Source of the DNA: Paracoccaceae bacterium
GTDB lineage: Bacteria > Pseudomonadota > Alphaproteobacteria > Rhodobacterales > Rhodobacteraceae
Direction: 5' to 3'
Assembly (NCBI GenBank): GCA_902631295.1
Contig: CACOXV010000008.1
Span: 9,189-73,188, forward strand
Length of the DNA: 64,000 bases
Positions within the stretch are counted from its first letter, which is position 1. Every line of letters starts with the position of its first letter. Shown piece after piece: positions 4,148 to 60,527 of this stretch. A program made the translations under genes and the position numbers. Below the pieces are notes generated by a model. That model saw nothing but the letters and a program-made list of their open reading frames with translations, had not been told where the DNA came from and ran no database searches.

Positions 4148-4278
4148 TACAGATTCGAGTCAATTCCTTTAAAGTTATTGAAAAATACCATATTTTTTGT
4201 GTTAAAATTGCAAAAGTTAAAAAATATGATATCGAATTTTTGAGCACTTAAGGTGTTTTAGTATGGGAGGAATATTTT

Positions 4279-5289
4279 ATGTTAAATAAATTTACAAGAC
4301 GTTCAGTCTTAAATGCGATTGCAGCGGCAAGCATGTTGGTTGGGACTACGGCTACAACAGTTGCGGCAGATCAAATGACTTTTACGCTGGCTACAGCTGG
4401 CTCTGAAACAGATATGAGATCAGCAGCTATGGCTAAAGTTTTTGCGCCTATGGTAGCAGGCTTTGCTGATTACCAACCTGGATATAATGCAACATTGTTC
4501 GCTCAAGGGACGGAGCTTGATGCTATCAGCCGCGGAAACTTGACAATGTCAATTGCGTCTGCGCAGGAATTAGCCCAATTTTTTCCTGAGTTTTCAATTT
4601 TTGCAACTGGGTATGTCCATCAGGATGCAGCACACCAAGTGCGTGTCTTCAACGATCCTTTAATGGACCCTTTCAAGAAAACAGTTGAAGATGAGCTTGG
4701 TGTAAAATTGCTTTCCGTCATGTATTTAGGGCGTCGTCATGTGAACTTGCGTCAGCCTAGATCTGAAGTTGATGTCCAAACTCCAGCAGATTTAGCCGGT
4801 GTTAACCTGAGAATGCCTGGAACAGATGCCTGGCAATTTTTGGGTGCAGCTCTAGGAGCCTCACCCACCCCATTCGCTTTTACCGAAGTTTACACAGCGC
4901 TTTCTACCGGGGCTGTTGATGGTCAAGATAACCCATTACCTACTGTTGTAGATGCTAAATTTTATGAAGTCACAAAGCAAATCGCGCTTACATCGCATCT
5001 AGTTGATTTAAATTACATAGCTTTTTCAAAAGATACTTGGGATAGCTTAACACCTGATCAACAAATGACTGTTCAGCGCGCTGCAGATGCAGCATCTGCT
5101 TGGGGTCGCTTGAAGCAATTAGATAAAGAAAATAATTTGGCAGACTTTATTCGTAGCCAAGGTGTTGAAATCTATAGCCCTGATCTTGACGCTTTCCGAA
5201 CCCACGTTCAAGCGCAGTATGTTGGAAGCGAATTTGCAGCAAGTTGGCCAGATGGCGTGTTGGAAAAAATCAACGCGCTTGGTAATTAA
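4279..5289 (+). CDS. dctP: TRAP transporter substrate-binding protein (Tat-like signal)
   Basis: TRRSVL signal, LRMPG (carboxylate-binding Arg), EVYTAL..G.VDGQDNP; GGGAGG RBS. Confidence 0.93.
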   Translation: MLNKFTRRSVLNAIAAASMLVGTTATTVAADQMTFTLATAGSETDMRSAAMAKVFAPMVAGFADYQPGYNATLFAQGTELDAISRGNLTMSIASAQELAQFFPEFSIFATGYVHQDAAHQVRVFNDPLMDPFKKTVEDELGVKLLSVMYLGRRHVNLRQPRSEVDVQTPADLAGVNLRMPGTDAWQFLGAALGASPTPFAFTEVYTALSTGAVDGQDNPLPTVVDAKFYEVTKQIALTSHLVDLNYIAFSKDTWDSLTPDQQMTVQRAADAASAWGRLKQLDKENNLADFIRSQGVEIYSPDLDAFRTHVQAQYVGSEFAASWPDGVLEKINALGN

Positions 5290-37076: not shown

Positions 37077-37781
37077 TTGGAAAAAAGAAAAGCGATCGTT
37101 ACCGGTAGTTCGAGCGGTATTGGAAAAGAAATTACTTCACTACTATTAAAAAGTGGGACTGATGTAATAGGTCTTGCACGCGATCACAAAAAATTTAAGC
37201 CAGATTTTGATGGTTATTTTCCTATTTCAGTTGATTTGTCGGATTTTGAAAAAACTGAGCGCATTATTCCGCAGGTTTTGCATCAACACTCTGAAGTTGA
37301 CGTGTTAATTTGTAATGCTGGTTGTGGTGATTTTCGAACCTTGGAGAATTTTTCTGCTAAGCAAATATCTGATTTTTTAAATTTAAATTTAATATCACAT
37401 ATAATGCTTTGCAGACACTTAGTGAGTTTTATGAAGGCTAAGGGTAGTGGTGACATTATTATCATGGGTTCAGAGGCTTCTATAGTTGGAAAGAAAAAGG
37501 CATCACTTTATTCAGCCGCAAAGTTTGGTTTGAGAGGTTTTGCTCAATCAATTCGTGATGAATGCGGCAACTCTGGCGTGAGGGTTTGTTTAATAAATCC
37601 GGGTTTTGTAAGAACCCCATTTTTTGACAGCTTGAATTTTGAGCCCGGCAAGGATGAAAATAATGCAATTGAACCAGGTGATATTGCTAAAATAGTATGT
37701 GATATTATCGAAACTAGAAAGGGTACACTCATTGATGAAATCAATGTATCACCAGCATCTAAGACGATAATATTCAAATAA
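37077..37781 (+). CDS. Classical SDR oxidoreductase (probably NADP-dependent)
   Basis: TGSSSGIG, LARD, CNAG, YSAAK, NPGFVRT; GGAG RBS, TTG start. Confidence 0.92.
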   Translation: MEKRKAIVTGSSSGIGKEITSLLLKSGTDVIGLARDHKKFKPDFDGYFPISVDLSDFEKTERIIPQVLHQHSEVDVLICNAGCGDFRTLENFSAKQISDFLNLNLISHIMLCRHLVSFMKAKGSGDIIIMGSEASIVGKKKASLYSAAKFGLRGFAQSIRDECGNSGVRVCLINPGFVRTPFFDSLNFEPGKDENNAIEPGDIAKIVCDIIETRKGTLIDEINVSPASKTIIFK

Positions 37782-37909
37782 AGTATCTTAAGAGTTATAA
37801 ATATATGCCAGCTATAAAATAATGCAAAACGGGTATGCAAAAATAGCATTGGTAAAACTTGCCGCAACGCAGCATATTATATTACAGAAAAACGTGATGC
37901 GTTTTTTAA

Positions 37910-38023
37910 AGTTTTTCACACGTTCCTCCCAATTTCGTTTGAAAGACTAAAGGATAGTGACCTACCTCCTCCCTAGGTCAATCTTTTCGATAAAGGCCCT
38001 TTTAAGAGGGCCTTTATCATTTT
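37910..38023 (+). ncRNA. Candidate anti-Shine-Dalgarno small RNA (AbcR/MmgR-SuhB/cuckoo-like): two CU-rich loop hairpins plus terminator
   Basis: Hairpin 1 AGTTTTTCA..TGAAAGACT with loop TTCCTCCCAATTT; hairpin 2 TGACCTA-CCTCCTCCC-TAGGTCA extended by AAAGGAT/ATCTTTT; terminator follows; 5' end approximate. Confidence 0.7.
37989..38023. terminator. Intrinsic terminator shared by the sRNA (+) and the aruI-like gene (-)
   Basis: GATAAAGGCCCT-TTTAAG-AGGGCCTTTATC perfect 12-bp stem, followed by ATTTT. Confidence 0.8.
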
Positions 38024-38038: not shown

Positions 38039-39613
38039 CTATTGGATTTCTCCAGAGATATGGATAACAGTCGGAACTTTTGCGCTGAAAGCTGCAATTA
38101 TATTTTTTTGTAGTTCTTTTTGGTTAGCTGGCTTTCTAGATAGCGCCCCATAGGATTCAGCTAATTTGCAGAAATTAGGGTTTAAAGCTTGAACGGAATT
38201 TGGAGCAATTTGCGCAGCCACCATGCTGTCCTCGATTGCTTTAAGTTTTTGGTTGTCCCAAATGAGAATTGGTAAATTAAGTTGCAATTCAACAGCGGTA
38301 CCTAACTCCTGTATTGTGTACTGAAATCCATAGTCACCAGCTATAGCTATCGTGGGCATATTGGGTCTGGCAATACAACCGCCTATCGCAGCTGGCAATG
38401 CATACCCTAAAGTCCCAAATCCATAAGGATGATGCCAATGATTAGGTTTTTTCATATCCCAAATTTCTTTAGCCAAATATGCAAATTGCGTCATATCAGA
38501 ATATACCATAGTATCTTCTGGTAAGATTTCCTCGACTGCTCTGACCACCTCTGATACCCCAGGAAACTCTCTTATTGCTTGTAAAGTCCATTCTTCACGT
38601 TTTTGCGATATAAGTTTAGGATCCCACTTTTCTGCACTATCTTGTCCATTGAAGTTTTTTAGAGATGCTTTAACAAAGTCTTCCACCTTCATATTTAGCT
38701 TAATATCCGCATTATGATGGTCACTGAGAACTTCAGGATCGGTATCGACACGAACCAGTGTACATTTGTGACCCAGATCGTATCGCCAGATATCAACTTC
38801 CGCTAGTTCTGAGCCCAGAACAACTATTAAATCTGATTTTGATAGCATACTTACAGTGTCTGGCCTAGCCAACGATGAGCCCATAAATAAAGGGTAAGTT
38901 GCTGGTATTAGTCCCCTGCCCGTAAAGCTTGTAAAACTGGCAGCACCAGTCTTTTTTATTAGCTTAAAAACGTCTGCTTTCTTTGCGCCACCACCTACAA
39001 TAAACAGAGGCTTTTCAGAGTTTTTAATTAGCTTCGAAACCTCATTTATCTCGTTTTCGGCATATGAAAAAAAGTTTTTAGCTCTTTCACTGATTTCAAA
39101 ATCAGGTGCGTTTTCTTCAAGTACTTTAATTGGGATTTGTATATGTTTTGGTCTGGGTCTCTTATCATGGAATTCTGTAAATGCCCGTTCCAATAAGCCA
39201 TAAGCAGCCTTGTAATTTTGAGCTGTCTCAGACCAGTCACAAACACTACCGGCTGCACTCTCCTGATCCAGCATTTGGTGTAACTGTCCGCGTCGGTATG
39301 CTGTTTCGTCTAAGCACGAAGAAATAGCTAGGACCGGTATGCTATCGGAGTATGATTGCCCTAGTGCAGTTAAAACATTACAAATACCTGGTCCCGTAAT
39401 AACATAAACAATTCCTGGTTTGCCACTGGCTCTGGCGTAGCCATCTGCCATGAAGCCAGCGCCCTGTTCATGTCTTGCAAGAATATGGATGAGCTCCGCT
39501 TCGTCAATGCCGCGATAAAGCTCTTGGTTGTGAACGCCGGGAATGCCAAATATGTATTGGACACCTTGGTTTTTTAAAAACCTTGATATTTGGACTCCGG
39601 TTGGTCTCTCCAT
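38039..39613 (-). CDS. aruI: ThDP-dependent decarboxylase, 5-guanidino-2-oxopentanoate (2-ketoarginine) decarboxylase-like
   Basis: FGIPGVHN, RHEQGAGFMADGYAR, GQLH, DMTQFAY, GFGTLGYALP, GDYG..N. Confidence 0.75.
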   Translation of the reverse strand: MERPTGVQISRFLKNQGVQYIFGIPGVHNQELYRGIDEAELIHILARHEQGAGFMADGYARASGKPGIVYVITGPGICNVLTALGQSYSDSIPVLAISSCLDETAYRRGQLHQMLDQESAAGSVCDWSETAQNYKAAYGLLERAFTEFHDKRPRPKHIQIPIKVLEENAPDFEISERAKNFFSYAENEINEVSKLIKNSEKPLFIVGGGAKKADVFKLIKKTGAASFTSFTGRGLIPATYPLFMGSSLARPDTVSMLSKSDLIVVLGSELAEVDIWRYDLGHKCTLVRVDTDPEVLSDHHNADIKLNMKVEDFVKASLKNFNGQDSAEKWDPKLISQKREEWTLQAIREFPGVSEVVRAVEEILPEDTMVYSDMTQFAYLAKEIWDMKKPNHWHHPYGFGTLGYALPAAIGGCIARPNMPTIAIAGDYGFQYTIQELGTAVELQLNLPILIWDNQKLKAIEDSMVAAQIAPNSVQALNPNFCKLAESYGALSRKPANQKELQKNIIAAFSAKVPTVIHISGEIQ

Positions 39614-39671: not shown

Positions 39672-40697
39672 ATGCGAACCACTAAGTCAATCCATGTTAT
39701 TTCAGCTCATGCGGAAGGTGAGGTAGGAGACGTGATTATTGGTGGAGTTCCGCCGCCACCCGGAGATACAGTTTGGGAGCAGAGTAAGTGGATTTTGAGT
39801 AATGGTTTATTGCGTAATTTCCTATTAAATGAGCCCCGAGGTGGCGTTTTTAGACATTTAAATTTACTTGTCCCTCCAAAGAACCCAAAAGCAGATGCAG
39901 CTTTTATTATAATGGAGCCAGAGTTTAATCCTCCGATGTCAGGATCAAATTCGATTTGCGTCGCAACCGTTTTGCTAGATGCCGGAATAATAGAGATGGT
40001 TGAACCCATCACTAGTTTCACGCTTGAGGCGCCGGGAGGTTTAATAAAAGTAAAGGCAGAGTGTTCTAACGGAAAGGCAGATAGAATCTATGTTAAAAAT
40101 TTGCCTAGTTTCTCAAATGCTCTTGATTCAGTACTTGAGATCGACGGATATGGAGCTTTGAGGGTTGATACTGCTTTTGGTGGTGACTCGTTTGTGGTAG
40201 TGGACGCAGACAGTCTAGGCTTAAGGCTTTCTCCGGATGAAGCTAAAGATCTAGCGAAATTAGGAGAAAAGATTACTCAAGCCGCCAACGAGCAATTAAA
40301 CTTTTATCATCCCACCTATTCTGATTGGGATCATTTTTCGTTTTGCCACTTTTGTGGCCCATTATTGCAAGATAAAAACGGTAAAAAATTTAAATCTGCG
40401 GTAGCAATAAAACCTGGAAAAATTGATAGGTCGCCCACAGGGACAGCCTTGTCAGCTAAAATGGCAATCTTACACAAGCGTGGGAAAATAAAAATTGGGG
40501 AGCAGTTAACTGCAAGTTCTATTATTAATTCAGAATTCACTGGTCAAATTTTAGGATTAACTAAGGTCGGAAGTGTGGAGGCTATTTTGCCGGAAATTAG
40601 TGGTCGTGCATGGATTACGGGTACCCATCAGCACATGCTTGATCCGGCAGATCCATGGCCAAGCGGTTATCGTATTTCAGATACCTGGGGTATTTAA
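39672..40697 (+). CDS. Proline-racemase superfamily, Ser/Thr type (trans-3-hydroxy-L-proline dehydratase-like)
   Basis: HAEGEVG, LNEPRG, MSGSN (Ser) and DRSPTGT (Thr) instead of the Cys/Cys pair. Confidence 0.85.
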   Translation: MRTTKSIHVISAHAEGEVGDVIIGGVPPPPGDTVWEQSKWILSNGLLRNFLLNEPRGGVFRHLNLLVPPKNPKADAAFIIMEPEFNPPMSGSNSICVATVLLDAGIIEMVEPITSFTLEAPGGLIKVKAECSNGKADRIYVKNLPSFSNALDSVLEIDGYGALRVDTAFGGDSFVVVDADSLGLRLSPDEAKDLAKLGEKITQAANEQLNFYHPTYSDWDHFSFCHFCGPLLQDKNGKKFKSAVAIKPGKIDRSPTGTALSAKMAILHKRGKIKIGEQLTASSIINSEFTGQILGLTKVGSVEAILPEISGRAWITGTHQHMLDPADPWPSGYRISDTWGI

Positions 40698-45728: not shown

Positions 45729-46967
45729 GTGAAAACAGCAATAGTAGCTGGAGCAGGGATAGTTGGTGTGTCAGCCGCCATATGGTTGCAAAGATTCGGT
45801 TACCAGGTAAAATTGATCGATCGCACTGGCCCAGCGTCTGGCACCTCTTATGGGAACGCTGGTGTTTTGGCCTCAGGTTCTATTATTCCCGTAACAATTC
45901 CAGGCTTAATTTCTAAGTCACCGAGCATGCTACTGGATCCGAATAAGCCACTTTTCCTAAAATATTCATATTTACCCCGCTTAGTGCCGTTTCTTTTTAA
46001 ATATCTAAGGCATACAAATATTGAGCATGTTGAGACTTATGCTGCTGCAATGTCTCAATTGTTGTATGATACCGTAGACCAGCATAAATCTTTAGCAAAG
46101 GGAACTGGAGCGGAAAAATATATCCAAACTACTGATTATTTGTTTGGCTATGATACAGAAGAAGCTTTCGAGAAAGATCGTTTCGCATGGGACATTCGTA
46201 GTAGACTAAAACATGATTTTGATATTTTAAAAGGGGAAGCACTACAAAGCGTTGATCCAATCTATAAAGATGCATTCAAAGTGATAGTGGTTAACCGTAA
46301 CCATGGTAAAATTAGTGATCCTGGCAAATATATAAAAGAGCTTTCAAAATATTTTGAGAATAATAACGGAGAAATAGTTCGAGCGAATATTAAAAGTTTT
46401 CAGCAAAAAGATTCAATGATCGTTGGTTTGGAGACTGACAATGGAGTGCATAAGGCAGACCATGTAATTTTTACACTGGGACCATGGTCTGGGGATTTAT
46501 CTAAAAGGCTTGGTCTCAATATACCTTTTGAAAGTGAACGCGGGTACCATATTGAGCTTATAAATCCTTCAAAAATGCCTCAAAATTCAATGATGGTTTC
46601 CTCTGGAAAATTTGTGGTAACCCCTATGGATGGGAGAATAAGATTAGCTGGACTTGTAGAATTCGGTGGATTGAAGGCCGGAGCATCTAAAGCACCGATA
46701 GAGTTACTAAAGAAAAATGCTTTAAAACTCTTTGCTGATATACAATATGATCATATTACAGAGTGGTTGGGTCATCGTCCAACAACAGCGAATAGTCTTC
46801 CGTTAATAGGTCGTGTCAAAAACTTTAAAAATGTATTTGTTGGATTTGGGCATCAGCATGTGGGCTTGACAGGGGGTGCTAAAACAGGTCGTATTATAGC
46901 TCAGTTGCTAGATGAACGAGAGCCAAATATTCAATTATCGTGGTTTGACCCAAATGAATATGCTTAA
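45729..46967 (+). CDS. DadA/DAO-family FAD-dependent dehydrogenase (paralogue of 31148)
   Basis: GAGIVG, TSYGNAG, SERGYH, GHRP...SLPLIG, FGHQHVG. Confidence 0.9.
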   Translation: MKTAIVAGAGIVGVSAAIWLQRFGYQVKLIDRTGPASGTSYGNAGVLASGSIIPVTIPGLISKSPSMLLDPNKPLFLKYSYLPRLVPFLFKYLRHTNIEHVETYAAAMSQLLYDTVDQHKSLAKGTGAEKYIQTTDYLFGYDTEEAFEKDRFAWDIRSRLKHDFDILKGEALQSVDPIYKDAFKVIVVNRNHGKISDPGKYIKELSKYFENNNGEIVRANIKSFQQKDSMIVGLETDNGVHKADHVIFTLGPWSGDLSKRLGLNIPFESERGYHIELINPSKMPQNSMMVSSGKFVVTPMDGRIRLAGLVEFGGLKAGASKAPIELLKKNALKLFADIQYDHITEWLGHRPTTANSLPLIGRVKNFKNVFVGFGHQHVGLTGGAKTGRIIAQLLDEREPNIQLSWFDPNEYA

Positions 46968-47002
46968 GCGATCTGCAACATAACAAAAATTGGGAGGAAT
47001 TA

Positions 47003-47974
47003 ATGGAGTTTAAGAATTTAGCCGCTGCTTTTGCTTGCGGTACATTTATAGCAGGTGCTTCAATAGCAGAAGACTGGGATATGCCAATGGCCTATTCCGC
47101 CACCAACTTTCATTCAGAAATGGGCGTAGTTTTTGCTGACAAAGTCCGCGATTATACCAGCGGAGAGATAAATATTACGGTTCATCCTGGTGGATCCTTG
47201 TTTAAGGGAGGTGAGATAAAAAGAGCTATACAAACGGGGCAAGCCCCTATTGGCGAAAGGTTTATGTCAGCTCATGCTAATGAAGCTCCGCTTTTGGGAT
47301 GGGACAACTTGCCGTTTCTTGCCACGACTTATGAAGCTAACAATAAGCTATGGGCAGCCGCCAAGGATAAAGTAAATTCACAATTATCCGACTTGAACCT
47401 CGTTGCTCTTTATACGTGCCCATGGCCAGGCCAAGGTTTTTATTTCAACAAAGCGGTTAATTCTTCAAAAGATACTCAGGGTGTCAAGTTTCGCTCTTAC
47501 AACTCTGCAACCGCGACTTTTGCTGAAGAGTTAGGAATGGTTCCAGTGCAAGTTGAGGCTGCTGAACTTTCGCAGGCACTGGCGACTGGAGTGGCAGAGT
47601 CATTTATTTCATCTGGATCTACCGGATACGATAGAAAGGTATGGGAACATTTATCACACTACTATAAAGTAAATGCTTGGTTACCTCGTAACTACGTAAT
47701 GGTTAATAAGGGTGTTTGGGAAGGTTTGAACTCTGATATGAGGGGTGCTATCCAAAAAGCTGCAGATGAAACTGGAGCAGCATGCTCTGCCAAATCTGCT
47801 GAATTAGCGAATTGGTATTTTGAGCAGCTTGAAGCAAATGGAATGGCTGTAGAAGATGCAAGTCCAGAATTTTTGGCTGAGCTACAGGCGATTGGAGCAA
47901 AGATGACTTCAGATTGGTTGGCATCAGCGGGAGCAGATGGTCAAGCAATATTGGATGCTTACAAATCAAATTAA
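47003..47974 (+). CDS. dctP: TRAP substrate-binding protein, Bordetella DctP6/7 (pyroglutamate-binding)-like clade
   Basis: WDMPMAYSATNFH, PWPGQG, KFRSYN; GGGAGG RBS. Confidence 0.9.
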   Translation: MEFKNLAAAFACGTFIAGASIAEDWDMPMAYSATNFHSEMGVVFADKVRDYTSGEINITVHPGGSLFKGGEIKRAIQTGQAPIGERFMSAHANEAPLLGWDNLPFLATTYEANNKLWAAAKDKVNSQLSDLNLVALYTCPWPGQGFYFNKAVNSSKDTQGVKFRSYNSATATFAEELGMVPVQVEAAELSQALATGVAESFISSGSTGYDRKVWEHLSHYYKVNAWLPRNYVMVNKGVWEGLNSDMRGAIQKAADETGAACSAKSAELANWYFEQLEANGMAVEDASPEFLAELQAIGAKMTSDWLASAGADGQAILDAYKSN

Positions 47975-47981
47975 GCTAATA

Positions 47982-48012
47982 TAAAATGCCCCGCTAAAAG
48001 CGGGGCATTTTA
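47982..48012 (+). terminator. Hairpin after dctP (partial terminator or mRNA stabiliser)
   Basis: TAAAATGCCCCGCT-AAA-AGCGGGGCATTTTA perfect 14-bp stem. Confidence 0.75.
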
Positions 48013-48026
48013 AAAGGAGGCAGAAA

Positions 48027-48740
48027 ATGAGAGATTGGCAGCCTATACTAGGGCTCCCTTTGTGGTTCTGGCTCTTTATTTTGCCAACGCTATTTGCGCT
48101 ATTTTGTCTGTTTAATCCCACTAAAGCAAAAAGACTAATGTCTCCAATTTGGCCTTTATTGGATAAAGTCTATTTGGGGTTTGGTATTTTGTCTGCAATT
48201 TTTATGATTGTAATTCTACTTTTGATTATTGGTCAGATGGTTGCGCGTTGGACTAATACGGTCTTTCCCGGAGGAACAGAGTTTGCTGGATATGCGATGG
48301 CATGTACATCCTTTTTTGCTTTGGCTTTCGCTTTAACCCAGGGATCCCATATTCGTGTCTCTATTTTTCTCAATATAAACAATTTTTTAAAGTTTTGGTT
48401 AGATGCCTTTGCTATGCTGGTGTCGGCTTGGACTGCAACATACTTTGCGCGATATGCAGTCAAAACAAATTTTCTATCTGAAATTTTGAACGATAGGACA
48501 CAAGGCTTAGATCAAGTTCCTGAATGGTTGCTTTCTATTTTTTCTATGATTGGCCAATGGCCTTGGGAGTGGAGCAAAACTTGGTCAAGCACGACCTCTG
48601 AACTGGTTTATACACCTGTATGGTTTCCACAAATAGCAATGTCCGTGGGAACAATTTTGCTAGCGGTTGCAATTTGGGATCACCTTTTTCGTTTACTGGC
48701 TTACAGAGAAACGCGTATTTTTCGGGAAGCAATCGAATGA
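48027..48740 (+). CDS. dctQ: TRAP small permease with N-terminal TM extension
   Basis: EFAGY, GSHIRV, PVWFPQ; AAGGAGG RBS. Confidence 0.88.
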   Translation: MRDWQPILGLPLWFWLFILPTLFALFCLFNPTKAKRLMSPIWPLLDKVYLGFGILSAIFMIVILLLIIGQMVARWTNTVFPGGTEFAGYAMACTSFFALAFALTQGSHIRVSIFLNINNFLKFWLDAFAMLVSAWTATYFARYAVKTNFLSEILNDRTQGLDQVPEWLLSIFSMIGQWPWEWSKTWSSTTSELVYTPVWFPQIAMSVGTILLAVAIWDHLFRLLAYRETRIFREAIE

Positions 48741-50044
48741 CAGAACTTTATGCCATAATCATTTTTTTATTCGTTTTATTTCTGCTTCTAGGCAGCTCTG
48801 TTTGGGTTGGGTTGGCGCTTATGGGAGTCGCTTGGGTGGGTATGGAACTTTTCACAACCCGCCCAGCTGGCGATGCAATGATTACTACCATTTGGACGGG
48901 AGCAAGTAGTTGGACCCTTACGGCTTTACCACTTTTTATTTGGATGGGGGAAATACTATTTCGAACAAGATTGTCAGAAGATATGTTTCGAGGACTATCG
49001 CCCTGGATGCGGTTTTTACCTGGTGGCTTACTGCATACAAATATAGCAGGATGTACCATATTTGCTGCGGTTTCTGGATCTTCTGCTGCAACTTTGAATA
49101 TGGTAGGAAAAATGTCTATACCTGAACTTCGTAGTAGGGGATATCCGGAATACATGATTATTGGTACGTTGGCAGGCGCGGCGACACTCGGCCTAATGAT
49201 ACCACCCTCCTTAACTTTGATTGTTTACGGTGTAACCATTAATGAGAGTATAACTAAATTGTTTATGGCTGGTGTGTTCCCGGGACTAGTTCTGGCCGGT
49301 TTATTTATGACTTACATAGTTTTTTGGCATTTTTTTGGAACCGGCGATCGGCCACAAAAAGAGCCCTCTATGTCTTTTTCTAAGATGATAAAGGAAAGTC
49401 TATTTCTGGTGCCAGTAATGGGTTTGGTCGGTGTTGTCATAGGGTCAATGTATTTAGGATTTGCTACCGCTACAGAAGCTGCAGCAGTTGGAGTAGTTGG
49501 AGCATTGATATTGTCGGCAGCCCAGGGGTCTCTTAATTGGTCAACATTTTCAGTTAGCCTTATGGGGGCCACTAAGACATCTGCCATGATTGCCTTAATT
49601 CTTATGGGTGCCGCGTTTTTATCACTATCTATGGGCTTTACAGGTCTGCCAAGAGCCATGGCAGAGTTGATTGAGAGTTATAATTTATCGCCGGTAGCTC
49701 TAATTGCAGTTCTTACAGTTTTTTATTTAATTCTTGGTATGTTTATGGATGGGCTATCTTCTGTTGTTCTCACAATGGCAATAGTGGAGCCAATGATCAG
49801 GACAGCCGGAATTGATCTGATCTGGTTTGGTATTTTCTTAGTTGTCGTTATCGAAACAGCGCAGGTTACTCCCCCAATCGGTTTTAACCTTTTTGTTTTG
49901 CAGGGTATGACGAAACACGAAATTGGTTACATTGCTAAGACCGCTATTCCAATGGTTGCGTTAATGTTGTTAATGGTTGTGATCTTAGTCATTTTTCCAG
50001 AGTTAGCTACATGGCTACCAGAAAATATACGTCAGCGGAATTAA
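48737..50044 (+). CDS. dctM: TRAP large permease
   Basis: LPLFIWMGE, SGSSAAT, LGLMIPPS, TPPIGFNL; ATGA overlap. Confidence 0.94.
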   Translation: MTELYAIIIFLFVLFLLLGSSVWVGLALMGVAWVGMELFTTRPAGDAMITTIWTGASSWTLTALPLFIWMGEILFRTRLSEDMFRGLSPWMRFLPGGLLHTNIAGCTIFAAVSGSSAATLNMVGKMSIPELRSRGYPEYMIIGTLAGAATLGLMIPPSLTLIVYGVTINESITKLFMAGVFPGLVLAGLFMTYIVFWHFFGTGDRPQKEPSMSFSKMIKESLFLVPVMGLVGVVIGSMYLGFATATEAAAVGVVGALILSAAQGSLNWSTFSVSLMGATKTSAMIALILMGAAFLSLSMGFTGLPRAMAELIESYNLSPVALIAVLTVFYLILGMFMDGLSSVVLTMAIVEPMIRTAGIDLIWFGIFLVVVIETAQVTPPIGFNLFVLQGMTKHEIGYIAKTAIPMVALMLLMVVILVIFPELATWLPENIRQRN

Positions 50045-53259: not shown

Positions 53260-54279
53260 ATGAAATTTAACTTTGGATTTTTTAAATCGTTAGCGGTTGG
53301 ATCATTGTTAGCTACATCCGTATTTGCGGATACAGAGCTCACTGTTTACACGGCTGTAGAGGCCGAAGATCTTTCTAGATATGCTGCTAAATTTAACGAA
53401 AGTCATCCAGATATTAAAATTAACTGGGTTAGAGATTCTACAGGGATCATTACAGCAAAACTATTGGCCGAAAAAAACAATCCACAAGCGGATGTTGTAT
53501 GGGGTCTAGCTGGTACTTCGCTGCTTCTGCTCAAATCAGAGGGAATGTTAGAGCCTTACGCTCCAGCTGGTGTAGAAAAGTTGGATAGTAAATTTGTTGA
53601 TGGTGATAATCCACCTGCTTGGGTTGGAATGGATGCATGGGTTGCTGCAGTTTGCTATAATACTGTCGAGGCGGGAAAAGCTGGACTAACACCACCAACC
53701 TCTTGGAAAGATTTGACGGATGCTCAGTACGCAGGCCATTTGATTATGCCAAATCCAAACTCATCTGGCACAGGATTTTTAGATGTATCTAGTTGGCTTC
53801 AGTTGTTTGGCGAAGAAGGTGGTTGGGAGTATATGGATGCCCTTCATGAAAATATCGCAAGGTATACTCACTCAGGCTCAAAACCCTGTAAATTAGCCGC
53901 TGCTGGGGAAATTCCAATCGGGATTTCATTTGCTTTCCGCGGTGCGAAATCGAAAGCAGCTGGTGCTCCATTAGATATTATTGTTCCGTCTGAAGGTGTT
54001 GGTTGGGACATGGAAGCCACCGCTATTGTTGCCGGAACATCGAAACTGGAAGCGGCACAGAAGCTTGTAGATTTTTCAGTAACAAAGGAAGCTAATGAAA
54101 TGTACAACGAAGGTTATGCAGTTGTTGCTTATCCTGGCGTAGCAAAACCTGTTGAGCATTTTCCTGAGGGATTAATTGAGGCGATGATTCCAAATGACTT
54201 CGAATTTGCAGCAAACAATAGAGCGCGTATTCTGAAAGAATGGCAGTCACGCTACGACGGCAAGTCTGATCCTAAATAA
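53260..54279 (+). CDS. aepX: 2-Aminoethylphosphonate ABC transporter substrate-binding protein (PhnS2/AepX)
   Basis: LTVYTAVE, WVRDSTGIITAKLLAEK.NPQAD, YTHSGSKPC, W..RY..K. Confidence 0.88.
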   Translation: MKFNFGFFKSLAVGSLLATSVFADTELTVYTAVEAEDLSRYAAKFNESHPDIKINWVRDSTGIITAKLLAEKNNPQADVVWGLAGTSLLLLKSEGMLEPYAPAGVEKLDSKFVDGDNPPAWVGMDAWVAAVCYNTVEAGKAGLTPPTSWKDLTDAQYAGHLIMPNPNSSGTGFLDVSSWLQLFGEEGGWEYMDALHENIARYTHSGSKPCKLAAAGEIPIGISFAFRGAKSKAAGAPLDIIVPSEGVGWDMEATAIVAGTSKLEAAQKLVDFSVTKEANEMYNEGYAVVAYPGVAKPVEHFPEGLIEAMIPNDFEFAANNRARILKEWQSRYDGKSDPK

Positions 54280-59426: not shown

Positions 59427-59489
59427 TTTTAAGAGATCCCTGTGAAAGGGACGAAAGTAGAGGAGAGTATCAATAAAAAGGAGTATATC

Positions 59490-60527
59490 ATGACAACAAG
59501 ACGTAAGTTTTTAACCACAGCAAGTATAGGCGGTGCAGCGGCACTAGCTACGCCTGCAATAGTCCAAGCTCAAAGCACAATAAAATGGCGTTTTCAAACG
59601 TATGCCGGCGGTGCACTTGGAGAACATGTAACTAAGCCAGTAATTGATTACATAAACGCTAATTCTAATGGAGAGCTGCAGGTAGAGTTATTCTATGCAG
59701 ATCAAATAGTCCCAACTGGTGAGCTCTTTCAAGCGTTGCAACGAGGCACAATTGATGGCGTTCATTCAGACGACGACTCAATGGCGTCACCAACTCCATT
59801 GCGTATGTTTGGAGGGTATTTTCCATTTGCAACCAAGCATATTTTAGATGTTCCAGTTCTATTTAATCAATATGGATTAAAGGAAATTTGGGAAGAAGAG
59901 TATGCAAAGGTAGGTGTAAAATGGATATCAGCCGCAGGGCAGGATCCTTGTAACTTCAATACAAAAAAGGAAATCACAAGTGTAGGCGATCTAGACGGGT
60001 TAAGATTATACTCATTTCCAACCGCAGGTAGGTTTCTAGCGAAATTTGGTGTGGTGCCGATGAACATTCCTTATGAAGATGCGGAGGTAGCAGTGCAAAC
60101 TGGTGAGCTTGATGGAATGGCCTGGTCAGGAATTACCGAAGATTATACTGTGGGTTGGGCTGATGTTACGGATTATTTTCTAACGAATAATATTTCCGGT
60201 GCTTGGATTGGCTCATGGTTCGTAAACGAGAAGAGATGGGCTGACTTACCAGATCACCTTAAATCGGTAGTTATGGCGGCAACCGAAGCCGGACATACAT
60301 ATCGTAACCAATGGTATTGGGGTGGTGAAGCGGCCCTACGTGCAAACGGTGATAAGCTTGCATTACGCTCAGTTCCTCCGGCAGAATGGGCAGAAGTTGA
60401 AAACGCTGCCAAGGATTTTTGGGAAGAAGTCGCTCAAGAAGGTGAGGTGCATCAAAAGATTGTAAACATCTTTAAAGAGTACAACTCCGTCATTAATCAG
60501 GCTGGAGCTCCATATAATTTTGAGTAA
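59490..60527 (+). CDS. dctP: Tat-exported TRAP substrate-binding protein, ethanolamine-binding type
   Basis: TRRKFL signal; LYSFPT (Phe replaces the canonical Arg), WSGITED; neighbours are GS-like, ALDH and Fe-ADH genes. Confidence 0.85.
   Translation: MTTRRKFLTTASIGGAAALATPAIVQAQSTIKWRFQTYAGGALGEHVTKPVIDYINANSNGELQVELFYADQIVPTGELFQALQRGTIDGVHSDDDSMASPTPLRMFGGYFPFATKHILDVPVLFNQYGLKEIWEEEYAKVGVKWISAAGQDPCNFNTKKEITSVGDLDGLRLYSFPTAGRFLAKFGVVPMNIPYEDAEVAVQTGELDGMAWSGITEDYTVGWADVTDYFLTNNISGAWIGSWFVNEKRWADLPDHLKSVVMAATEAGHTYRNQWYWGGEAALRANGDKLALRSVPPAEWAEVENAAKDFWEEVAQEGEVHQKIVNIFKEYNSVINQAGAPYNFE

Follow-up and report, generated by a model that had tools for sequence, protein, structure and literature searches.

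A putative stand-alone cuckoo-type sRNA with two anti-SD loops in a low-GC pelagic roseobacter

The 257-bp spacer between an SDR gene (37077-37781, + strand) and a TPP-enzyme gene (38039-39613, - strand) of a pelagic roseobacter very probably holds a genuine cuckoo-type sRNA gene. We regard it as a diverged, low-GC, single-copy, stand-alone member of the cuckoo family (ar14/NfeR1/CcsR) and not as a new kind of element. The explanation that we favor, with a probability of about 0.68, is a trans-acting RNA with its own promoter that damps the translation of periplasmic proteins, with dctPQM as the strongest candidate target. What was observed directly is the sequence of this element, how it folds, its conservation, its likeness to the family and its occurrence in RNA libraries; its strand, ends, targets, repressive effect and regulator are inferred. 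An unannotated anti-SD sRNA gene had been proposed here in the initial annotation, and our results bear this out for a gene of the cuckoo/ar14 kind: ar14 was the sole meaningful Rfam match, and the element has its own conserved promoter and terminator.

According to the proposed mechanism, a + strand sRNA would start from its own conserved promoter at about 37886 and end at an intrinsic terminator. Its two hairpin loops would present anti-SD sequences, and either loop could pair with the extended SD, (U)GGGAGGA(A), of a few mRNAs. By analogy with NfeR1 and AbcR1, this pairing would block ribosome binding and lower translation. The affected mRNAs would mostly be those of periplasmic proteins (solute-binding proteins, or SBPs, of TRAP and ABC systems, SoxA, and the flavoprotein of flavocytochrome-c sulfide dehydrogenase), so that the synthesis of periplasmic capture proteins would be trimmed while the promoter is active.

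The window (the whole 64,000-nt stretch of DNA that was analyzed) is contig 8 of a 1.96-Mb, 40% GC, 70%-complete metagenome-assembled genome from seawater (G000). The SDR gene is the last of a four-gene operon that ends at 37781 and has the same orientation as the sRNA, and the TPP-enzyme gene is convergent to it, with its stop codon 17 nt from the terminator. The nearest relatives of the TPP enzyme (46-56% identity) belong almost only to roseobacter-group Rhodobacterales (Ruegeria, Planktotalea, Sulfitobacter, Roseovarius). Genome-wide blastn and an ar14 covariance search found a single copy of the element, which rules out a tandem array. No DUF1127 gene lies next to it, and a motif scan of small ORFs in this 70%-complete genome found none. 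Hfq is encoded in the genome. The earlier statement that the region has no transcription-factor genes held for the 20 of 55 ORFs that were scanned, none of which was a regulator, and for LysR genes on the contig, of which there were none. A small protein from the 17-codon ORF at 37897-37950 was dismissed, as the ORF has no SD and its ATG is missing in the orthologues. The coordinates are collected in Table 1.

Table 1. Coordinates in the window of the predicted sRNA, its parts, its promoter block and two candidate target sites
Feature	Position	Strand	Basis
Predicted sRNA, ~125-137 nt	37886-38022	+	Fold z -8.09; ar14 alignment over 37910-38017; metatranscriptome contigs
5' leader hairpin (AAAAACG/CGUUUUU), then U run	37887-37907	+	Fold of the 137-nt RNA
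Hairpin 1 with 13-nt loop UUCCUCCCAAUUU at 37923-37935 (anti-SD seed 1)	37910-37948	+	MFE fold, compensatory changes
Hairpin 2 with 9-nt loop CCUCCUCCC at 37965-37973 (anti-SD seed 2, exact cuckoo motif)	37949-37987	+	Fold
Rho-independent terminator: 13-bp G+C-rich stem 37989-38018, UUAA loop, U-rich tail	37989-38022	+	Fold
Conserved promoter block	37822-37878	+	Near-invariant in nine orthologues
Best predicted target site, RBS of dctP (47003-47974)	46987-46999	+	Exact 13-nt complement of loop 1
Second candidate site, UGGGAGGAA before the other dctP (4279-5289)	4264-4272	+	Rank 18 of 1796 for loop 1

The 137-nt RNA with its 5' leader folded with an MFE of -50 kcal/mol (z -8.09). The two hairpins and the terminator without the leader gave -43.4 kcal/mol (z -5.97), and none of 200 dinucleotide shuffles was equally stable. 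The hairpins abut, and both loops were unpaired in the MFE and the centroid folds; the loop sequences TTCCTCCCAATTT (37923-37935) and CCTCCTCCC (37965-37973) are where they had been placed. A terminator does follow the hairpins, as claimed, although its stem has 13 bp and not 12; its tail is interrupted (UUUAUCAUUUU). A scanner for consensus promoters and terminators flagged neither the promoter nor the terminator of the sRNA. The predicted 5' end is uncertain, at 37886-37894 or, if processed, near 37901, and the 3' end would lie within the U tail. The leader hairpin is weak and A/U-rich, lies directly past the predicted start and is followed by six U. Its stem changes from CG to CAC/GUG between clades in an alignment read by eye, and the hairpin is deleted in two orthologues (G006 and G017). 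Possible roles are those of an Hfq site, of an attenuator or of a leaky terminator of the SDR operon.

Orthologues were found by BLAST in eight other species of the genus, with the SDR/TPP context kept and 74-93% identity. Loop 1 was identical in seven of the nine sequences and had one or two substitutions in G006 and G017; in the nine-way alignment the loop 1 region, GU(U/A)CCUCCC(A/U)AUUUCGUU, was near-invariant. In hairpin 2 the inner stem was invariant, and the loop was C/U-rich around UCCUCC but variable (UCCUCCCCC, CCUCCUCCU). Most pairs of the terminator stem were invariant, and most orthologues had the tail CUUUUUCAUUU. Helix 1 showed compensatory changes at three pairs (G-C to A-U, U-A to G-C, and U-G to A-U) and was 97-100% paired. 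Overall, 88% of the alignment cells paired, versus 32-57% when the 3' partners were slid. The covariation itself was modest, which counts against the explanation that we favor: only the covariation score clearly beat column shuffles (12/500), and compensatory-pair counts did not. The support for the structure therefore rests mainly on stability, conservation and the slide control. An alignment of orthologous spacers had been suggested as a check, and it upheld the conservation of hairpins and loops, with three compensatory pairs, but not an excess of such pairs over shuffles.

A covariance model built from these orthologues (R1) was narrow, with an effective sequence number of 1.19. It recovered all of them and three strongly diverged copies (G009, G018 and G002; loci L127, L128 and L129), which brings the sRNA matches to 12 of the 22 genomes of the genus and to four of the five that are at least 90% complete. 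The diverged copies have the hairpin-hairpin-terminator layout, with the loops AUCCUCCCUU and UCCUCCCCCC. They also keep an ATGCA-N5/6-(T)GCAT promoter palindrome, and their core promoter is different (TATAGT). At E <= 0.01, R1 had no match in any of 149 further genera of the family.

Counts of short motifs in the window were not above those in shuffles, so the motifs alone mean little; unlike these counts, the fold, the conservation and the 13-nt extension described below do exceed chance. This bears on the view that the spacer is non-regulatory, a set of stacked terminators or structured DNA between convergent genes, in which C/U-rich loops arose by chance. Such a view would agree with the motif counts and with the position of the last hairpin, which at 17 nt from the stop codon of the TPP-enzyme gene could terminate transcription on both strands. 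It does not agree with loops that are more conserved than the stems, with an ar14 alignment over the full length, with the lack of a U tail after the stem on the - strand or with the conserved promoter block, and we consider it highly improbable.

The whole window gave no Rfam match at gathering thresholds. The only meaningful match was to ar14 (RF02344), whose model positions 1-123 aligned over 37910-38017 with 28.1 bits and an E value of 0.0012 for the spacer or 0.002 for the genome. This is far under the gathering threshold of 58.8 bits, a point against our explanation. In a survey of the family (Rhodobacteraceae/roseobacter group) at E <= 0.01, 84 of the 100 genera sampled had an ar14 match, as against none of the 14 control genomes, and on this ground we take the match of the element as homology-grade rather than noise. 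Only 13 of the 101 genomes searched exceeded the gathering threshold; Rfam thresholds miss low-GC members of the cuckoo family. The initial annotation had named suhB, cuckoo/ar14 and AbcR as the families to be checked. The ar14 model gave the sub-threshold match, and the AbcR (ar15) and suhB/MmgR models had no match on the spacer at E <= 10. A covariance search of the whole genome with RF02791 (CcsR1) likewise had no match at E <= 10.

The published cuckoo grammar consists of two to four adjacent hairpins with loops of 9-27 nt, helices of at least 6 bp and linkers of at most 10 nt (PMC4615179). The element conforms to this grammar, with loops of 13 and 9 nt, helices of 12 and 14 bp with small interruptions, and a linker of 0 nt. 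The family description also asks for CCUCCUCCC or an accepted variant in every hairpin loop; loop 2 is an exact CCUCCUCCC and loop 1 is a variant, UUCCUCCCA, in seven of the nine orthologues. The ar14 layout of three hairpins, with CCUCCUCCC in each loop and the last hairpin as terminator, was not found; there are two motif hairpins and a plain terminator with a UUAA loop. The same arrangement occurs in some stand-alone roseobacter copies (L105, L113).

In the 2015 cuckoo paper, the only neighborhood reported for Rhodobacteraceae is that of DUF1127 (CIN1, OG1/ccaF1; Reinkensmeier and Giegerich, PMC4615179). The sRNA described here is not downstream of a DUF1127 gene, as in CIN1, but lies between the SDR gene upstream and the TPP-enzyme gene downstream. 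On inspection, the ar14-model matches in the family fell into two classes: tandem arrays immediately downstream of a DUF1127 gene, which correspond to the known ccaF1-CcsR organization, and stand-alone copies with their own upstream region, to which the present RNA belongs. The sister-genus loci inspected were L095-L114 and L135-L154, and some genomes (G084, G042 and G129) had both classes together. The stand-alone copies in sister genera have different neighbors and a similar promoter motif.

Three named systems can be compared with the element. NfeR1 of S. meliloti (Smr14C/SmelC397, RF02344) is also a stand-alone gene of ~120 nt with a sigma-70-type promoter and a terminator, and its adjacent hairpins carry redundant anti-SD loops (CCUCCUCCC); its model, ar14, aligns over the full length here. 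A TGCA-N6-GCAT box and a TGC-N11-GCA motif lie upstream of both, at the LsrB and NtrC sites in the case of nfeR1 (PMC10746234). The element differs from NfeR1 in its score (28 bits versus 58.8), in having the motif in two of the three hairpins with a UUAA terminator loop, in a variant loop 1 with an A/U-rich 3' flank, and in its host, a 40% GC pelagic roseobacter.

The CcsR1-4 RNAs (RSs0680a-d, RF02791) of Rhodobacter/Cereibacter sphaeroides come from the same bacterial family, and each has two anti-SD hairpins with the CCUCCUCCC loop. Most ar14-model matches in sister genera look like CcsR-type arrays. The CcsR RNAs are encoded in tandem and are processed out of the 3' UTR of ccaF1, a DUF1127 gene, under an RpoHI/HII promoter (PMC4615179, PMC8034643). 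The element described here differs in its single copy and own promoter, with no DUF1127 gene nearby and no RF02791 match at E <= 10.

Two anti-SD modules, both single-stranded, are also present in AbcR1 and AbcR2 (ar15) of Agrobacterium, Sinorhizobium and Brucella, and AbcR1 silences mRNAs of periplasmic solute-binding proteins (PMC4152367), the same class as the targets predicted here. The ar15 model, however, had no match here at E <= 10. AbcR acts on ABC rather than TRAP systems, is activated by LsrB/VtlR and depends on Hfq. Both NfeR1 and AbcR1 silence mRNAs, largely of nutrient-uptake genes, through redundant anti-SD loops. NfeR1 uses three such loops and RBS occlusion, independently of Hfq, on a large regulon rich in nutrient-uptake genes, and AbcR1 uses two modules and is Hfq-dependent (PMC10746234; 10.1101/2025.11.14.688489; PMC4152367).

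The conserved block upstream of the element carries ATGCA half-sites at 37822-26 and 37835-39, a TGC-N11-GCA motif at 37823-37839, and an exact TGCA-N6-GCAT box at 37836-37849 that is invariant in the nine orthologues and would be expected ~3.4 times per 64 kb. A -35-like TTGGTA (37849-54) and a -10-like CATATT (37873-78) follow, with an 18-nt spacer, and an imperfect palindrome, TTGCCGCAACGCAGCAT, lies at 37859-77. From these hexamers we infer a core promoter with a start near A37886 or, by analogy with other genera, a few bases later. The block is more conserved than the 5' leader of the transcript, and its flanks vary too; this is the signature of a promoter with protein-binding sites. In the three diverged copies of the genus (G009, G018 and G002), the half-sites of the box are kept and the spacer is variable. 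A sigma-54 promoter was rejected by eye, since the GG-to-GC spacing is 8 and not 10, and RpoH- and EcfG-type promoters did not fit by eye either.

Experiments on the nfeR1 promoter of S. meliloti have defined the TGCA-N6-GCAT and TGC-N11-GCA motifs as its LsrB and NtrC sites (PMC10746234). The box found here is of the LsrB/VtlR type (TGCA-N6-GCAT, T-N11-A), but it adjoins the -35 element (about -50 to -37), compared with -72 to -57 at nfeR1. LsrB is reported to be confined to Rhizobiales (PMC11975290). The 70%-complete genome yielded five LysR genes, none of them named LsrB by NCBIfam. Two OxyR/CynR-like LysR proteins matched OxyR structures, and the LsrB entry 9HH1 was not among the matches listed. 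A factor binding to the conserved ATGCA/TGCAT palindromes probably controls transcription of the sRNA.

Upstream of the stand-alone copies in other genera are TGCYGCA-N2-3-GCAGCA palindromes, and a TTGTGCA-N3-GCAGCAT element immediately precedes a CTATNT -10. A strict pattern search of 400 sampled genera found such stand-alone loci in at least a dozen genera; 31 genomes matched, versus ~5 in the reversed control, and about half of the matches listed look like chance. We also compared the window with a sequence-only model of the stand-alone promoters from 13 other genera (R2). Its best match fell inside the sRNA promoter (37859-37876), with 6.8 bits and an E value of 0.29, which is not significant. 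A short promoter motif is thus common to copies across genera, and homology of the promoters is not statistically established.

A broader interpretation, which we consider doubtful, is that the element is the only riboregulator of the cuckoo type in a genus of streamlined pelagic roseobacters. It would belong to an undescribed stand-alone subclass spread across Rhodobacteraceae, marked by LsrB-box-like promoter palindromes (TGCYGCA...GCAGCA / TGCA-N6-GCAT; compare rhizobial nfeR1 and abcR1). If this were true, an old circuit from a transcription factor to an anti-SD sRNA would exist outside Rhizobiales and would tune TRAP/ABC solute capture and Sox proteins in the ocean.

Six RNA runs, selected for containing it, contained part of the stretch, and four of them were aligned to it. 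Being assembled contigs, these data reveal nothing on strand or true ends and give no reliable levels. In one run, short contigs were confined to 37917-38010, with word depths of 12.8 and 58.3, and contigs on the flanking genes had word depths of 5.1 (SDR gene) and 3.4-3.6 (TPP gene). A second run of the same study had a single contig (37886-38070) that starts at the predicted start of the sRNA. In a third run a contig starts at 37902, immediately after Illumina adapter sequence. This points to a position where fragments often end, and perhaps to a processed 5' end near 37902. Runs X17 and X19 had only long contigs over the whole 1.2 kb, and in runs X15 and X16 several bins were without cover; these observations are neutral as to expression. 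Together, the metatranscriptome contigs are a weak hint that the sRNA is expressed.

The long contigs of X17 and X19 run without a break from the SDR gene through the element, which is what would be expected if the RNA were not an independent gene but the processed 3' end or read-through tail of the SDR operon (a 3'-UTR-derived sRNA or a structured UTR). The shared orientation of the four-gene operon and the weak terminator-like hairpin at 37887-37907 point the same way. Between the SDR stop codon and the RNA, however, a stretch of 60 bp is near-invariant and contains promoter-like hexamers and palindromes; in other genera, stand-alone copies have a similar motif next to different neighbors; and the element-restricted contigs are deeper in word depth than those of the SDR gene. 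On balance a derivation from the operon seems improbable to us, and we keep to a gene with its own promoter.

The perfect 13-nt match to a dctP ribosome-binding site reported in the initial annotation is real. The reverse complement of loop 1, AAATTGGGAGGAA, has one further exact occurrence in the window (46987-46999), separated by 3 nt from the ATG of dctP at 47003, and a blastn search of the 1.96-Mb genome found no further 13-nt match. The gene is a Pfam DctP gene and the first of dctPQM (47003-50044; Pfam DctP/DctQ/DctM). Its start is only 35 nt past a DAO oxidoreductase gene, and the RBS affected by pairing would be internal to a longer transcript. Two further sites were also as described: TGGGAGGAA at 4264-4272 precedes a second, Pfam-confirmed DctP gene (4279), and GGGGAGG at 1079-1085 precedes an M20 peptidase gene at 1091.

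Every translation-initiation region of a crude gene call (1809 genes) was scored, 1796 by loop duplex and 1783 by cofold. By loop 1 duplex energy, dctP at 47003 ranked 2/1796, with -21.2 kcal/mol (mean -8.5, sd 3.3). By full-length cofold, in which the opening of both RNAs is charged, it ranked 1/1783, with a ddG of -11.7 kcal/mol (mean -1.65, sd 2.07). The top loop 1 duplex was that of the initiation region of rpoD (sigma-70; G000:C19:23105-25084; AUUGGGAG, -21.4 kcal/mol), which is no longer among the top 30 when the cost of unfolding is included.

Few genes of this genome have a strong SD: GGGAGG is present in only 23 and GGGAGGAA in only 7 of about 1800. These seven genes encode four Pfam-confirmed SBPs (two DctP, one OpuAC and one SBP_bac_8), two periplasmic Sox proteins (SoxA and the flavocytochrome-c sulfide dehydrogenase flavoprotein, with a Tat signal) and one phosphoribosyltransferase. 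Six of the seven products are periplasmic, and extended G-rich SDs mark a periplasmic gene class in the genome. Examples are C42:7680-8942, C19:32707-33546, C1:71094-72068 and C36:6389-7438, and, in the window, the genes at 4279 and 47003. The chance that a random 5-nt loop flank would extend one of the seven GGGAGGAA sites to a perfect 13-mer is about 0.012-0.019. Given the 8-nt core, a chance of about 1-2% means that the match exceeds what the SD consensus alone explains.

These numbers have to be weighed against the reading in which a real, cuckoo-like sRNA matches dctP only by accident, dctPQM is not regulated to any meaningful extent, and other mRNAs or sRNAs are targeted within a broad anti-SD regulon of low specificity such as that of NfeR1. 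In G006 and G017 the loop flank and the flank of the dctP RBS have both changed and are not complementary, with pairing of 6 nt left in G006 and 8 nt in G017; the extension is thus neither conserved nor compensated there, and co-variation of the sRNA with dctP was dismissed. Three other species (G004, G014 and G015) have retained the sRNA, its loop 1 unaltered, but have no close orthologue of the dctP at 47003. A fortuitous match would also accord with the reported breadth of NfeR1, which targets about 7% of genes via 8-nt seeds (10.1101/2025.11.14.688489). Against it stand the first rank among 1783 regions and the 1-2% conditional chance of the 13-mer, and the predicted ddG of dctP in G006 and G017 (-9.3 and -9.4) would still lie within the top 1% of the distribution in the window's genome.

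Enrichment of SBP genes was the other check that had been suggested. In a set of 32 Pfam-defined SBP genes, which missed at least one SBP_bac_1 gene, pairing was better than in other genes with loop 1 (p 3e-7) and with loop 2 (6e-10), but the 16S anti-SD gave an equal preference (3e-10). As this control matches it, the enrichment is not usable as evidence of specificity, and a generic SD effect would account for it under a fortuitous dctP match too. Overall we judge the fortuitous match unlikely, and damping of periplasmic-protein translation by the sRNA is the reading that we retain. A direct action on dctP itself has, in our estimate, slightly less than an even chance, and steric constraints make a duplex of 13 bp within a 13-nt hairpin loop unlikely unless the stem opens. 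The proposed role as a regulator of nutrient uptake is accordingly plausible by analogy, with dctP as the top predicted target, but the SBP preference is generic and the dctP extension is not kept.

Anti-SD cuckoo RNAs have been well studied in rhizobia and Rhodobacter and hardly at all in the abundant, uncultured, genome-reduced marine roseobacters. In this genus there is a single such RNA, which would have a small and coherent predicted regulon of periplasmic binding and Sox proteins with GGGAGGA-type SDs. Being single and present in metatranscriptome libraries, with a regulon of this kind, it would offer a tractable handle on the post-transcriptional control of nutrient uptake at sea. The finding does not overturn current understanding.

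A third DctP gene and an SBP_bac_6/8 gene in the window (59442-60527 and 53260-54279) have ordinary SDs and weak predicted pairing. The dctPQM genes are preceded by a gene of the proline racemase family (39672-40697) and by the DAO oxidoreductase gene (45729-46967), and these surroundings suggest a cluster for the uptake and catabolism of hydroxyproline or D-amino acids.
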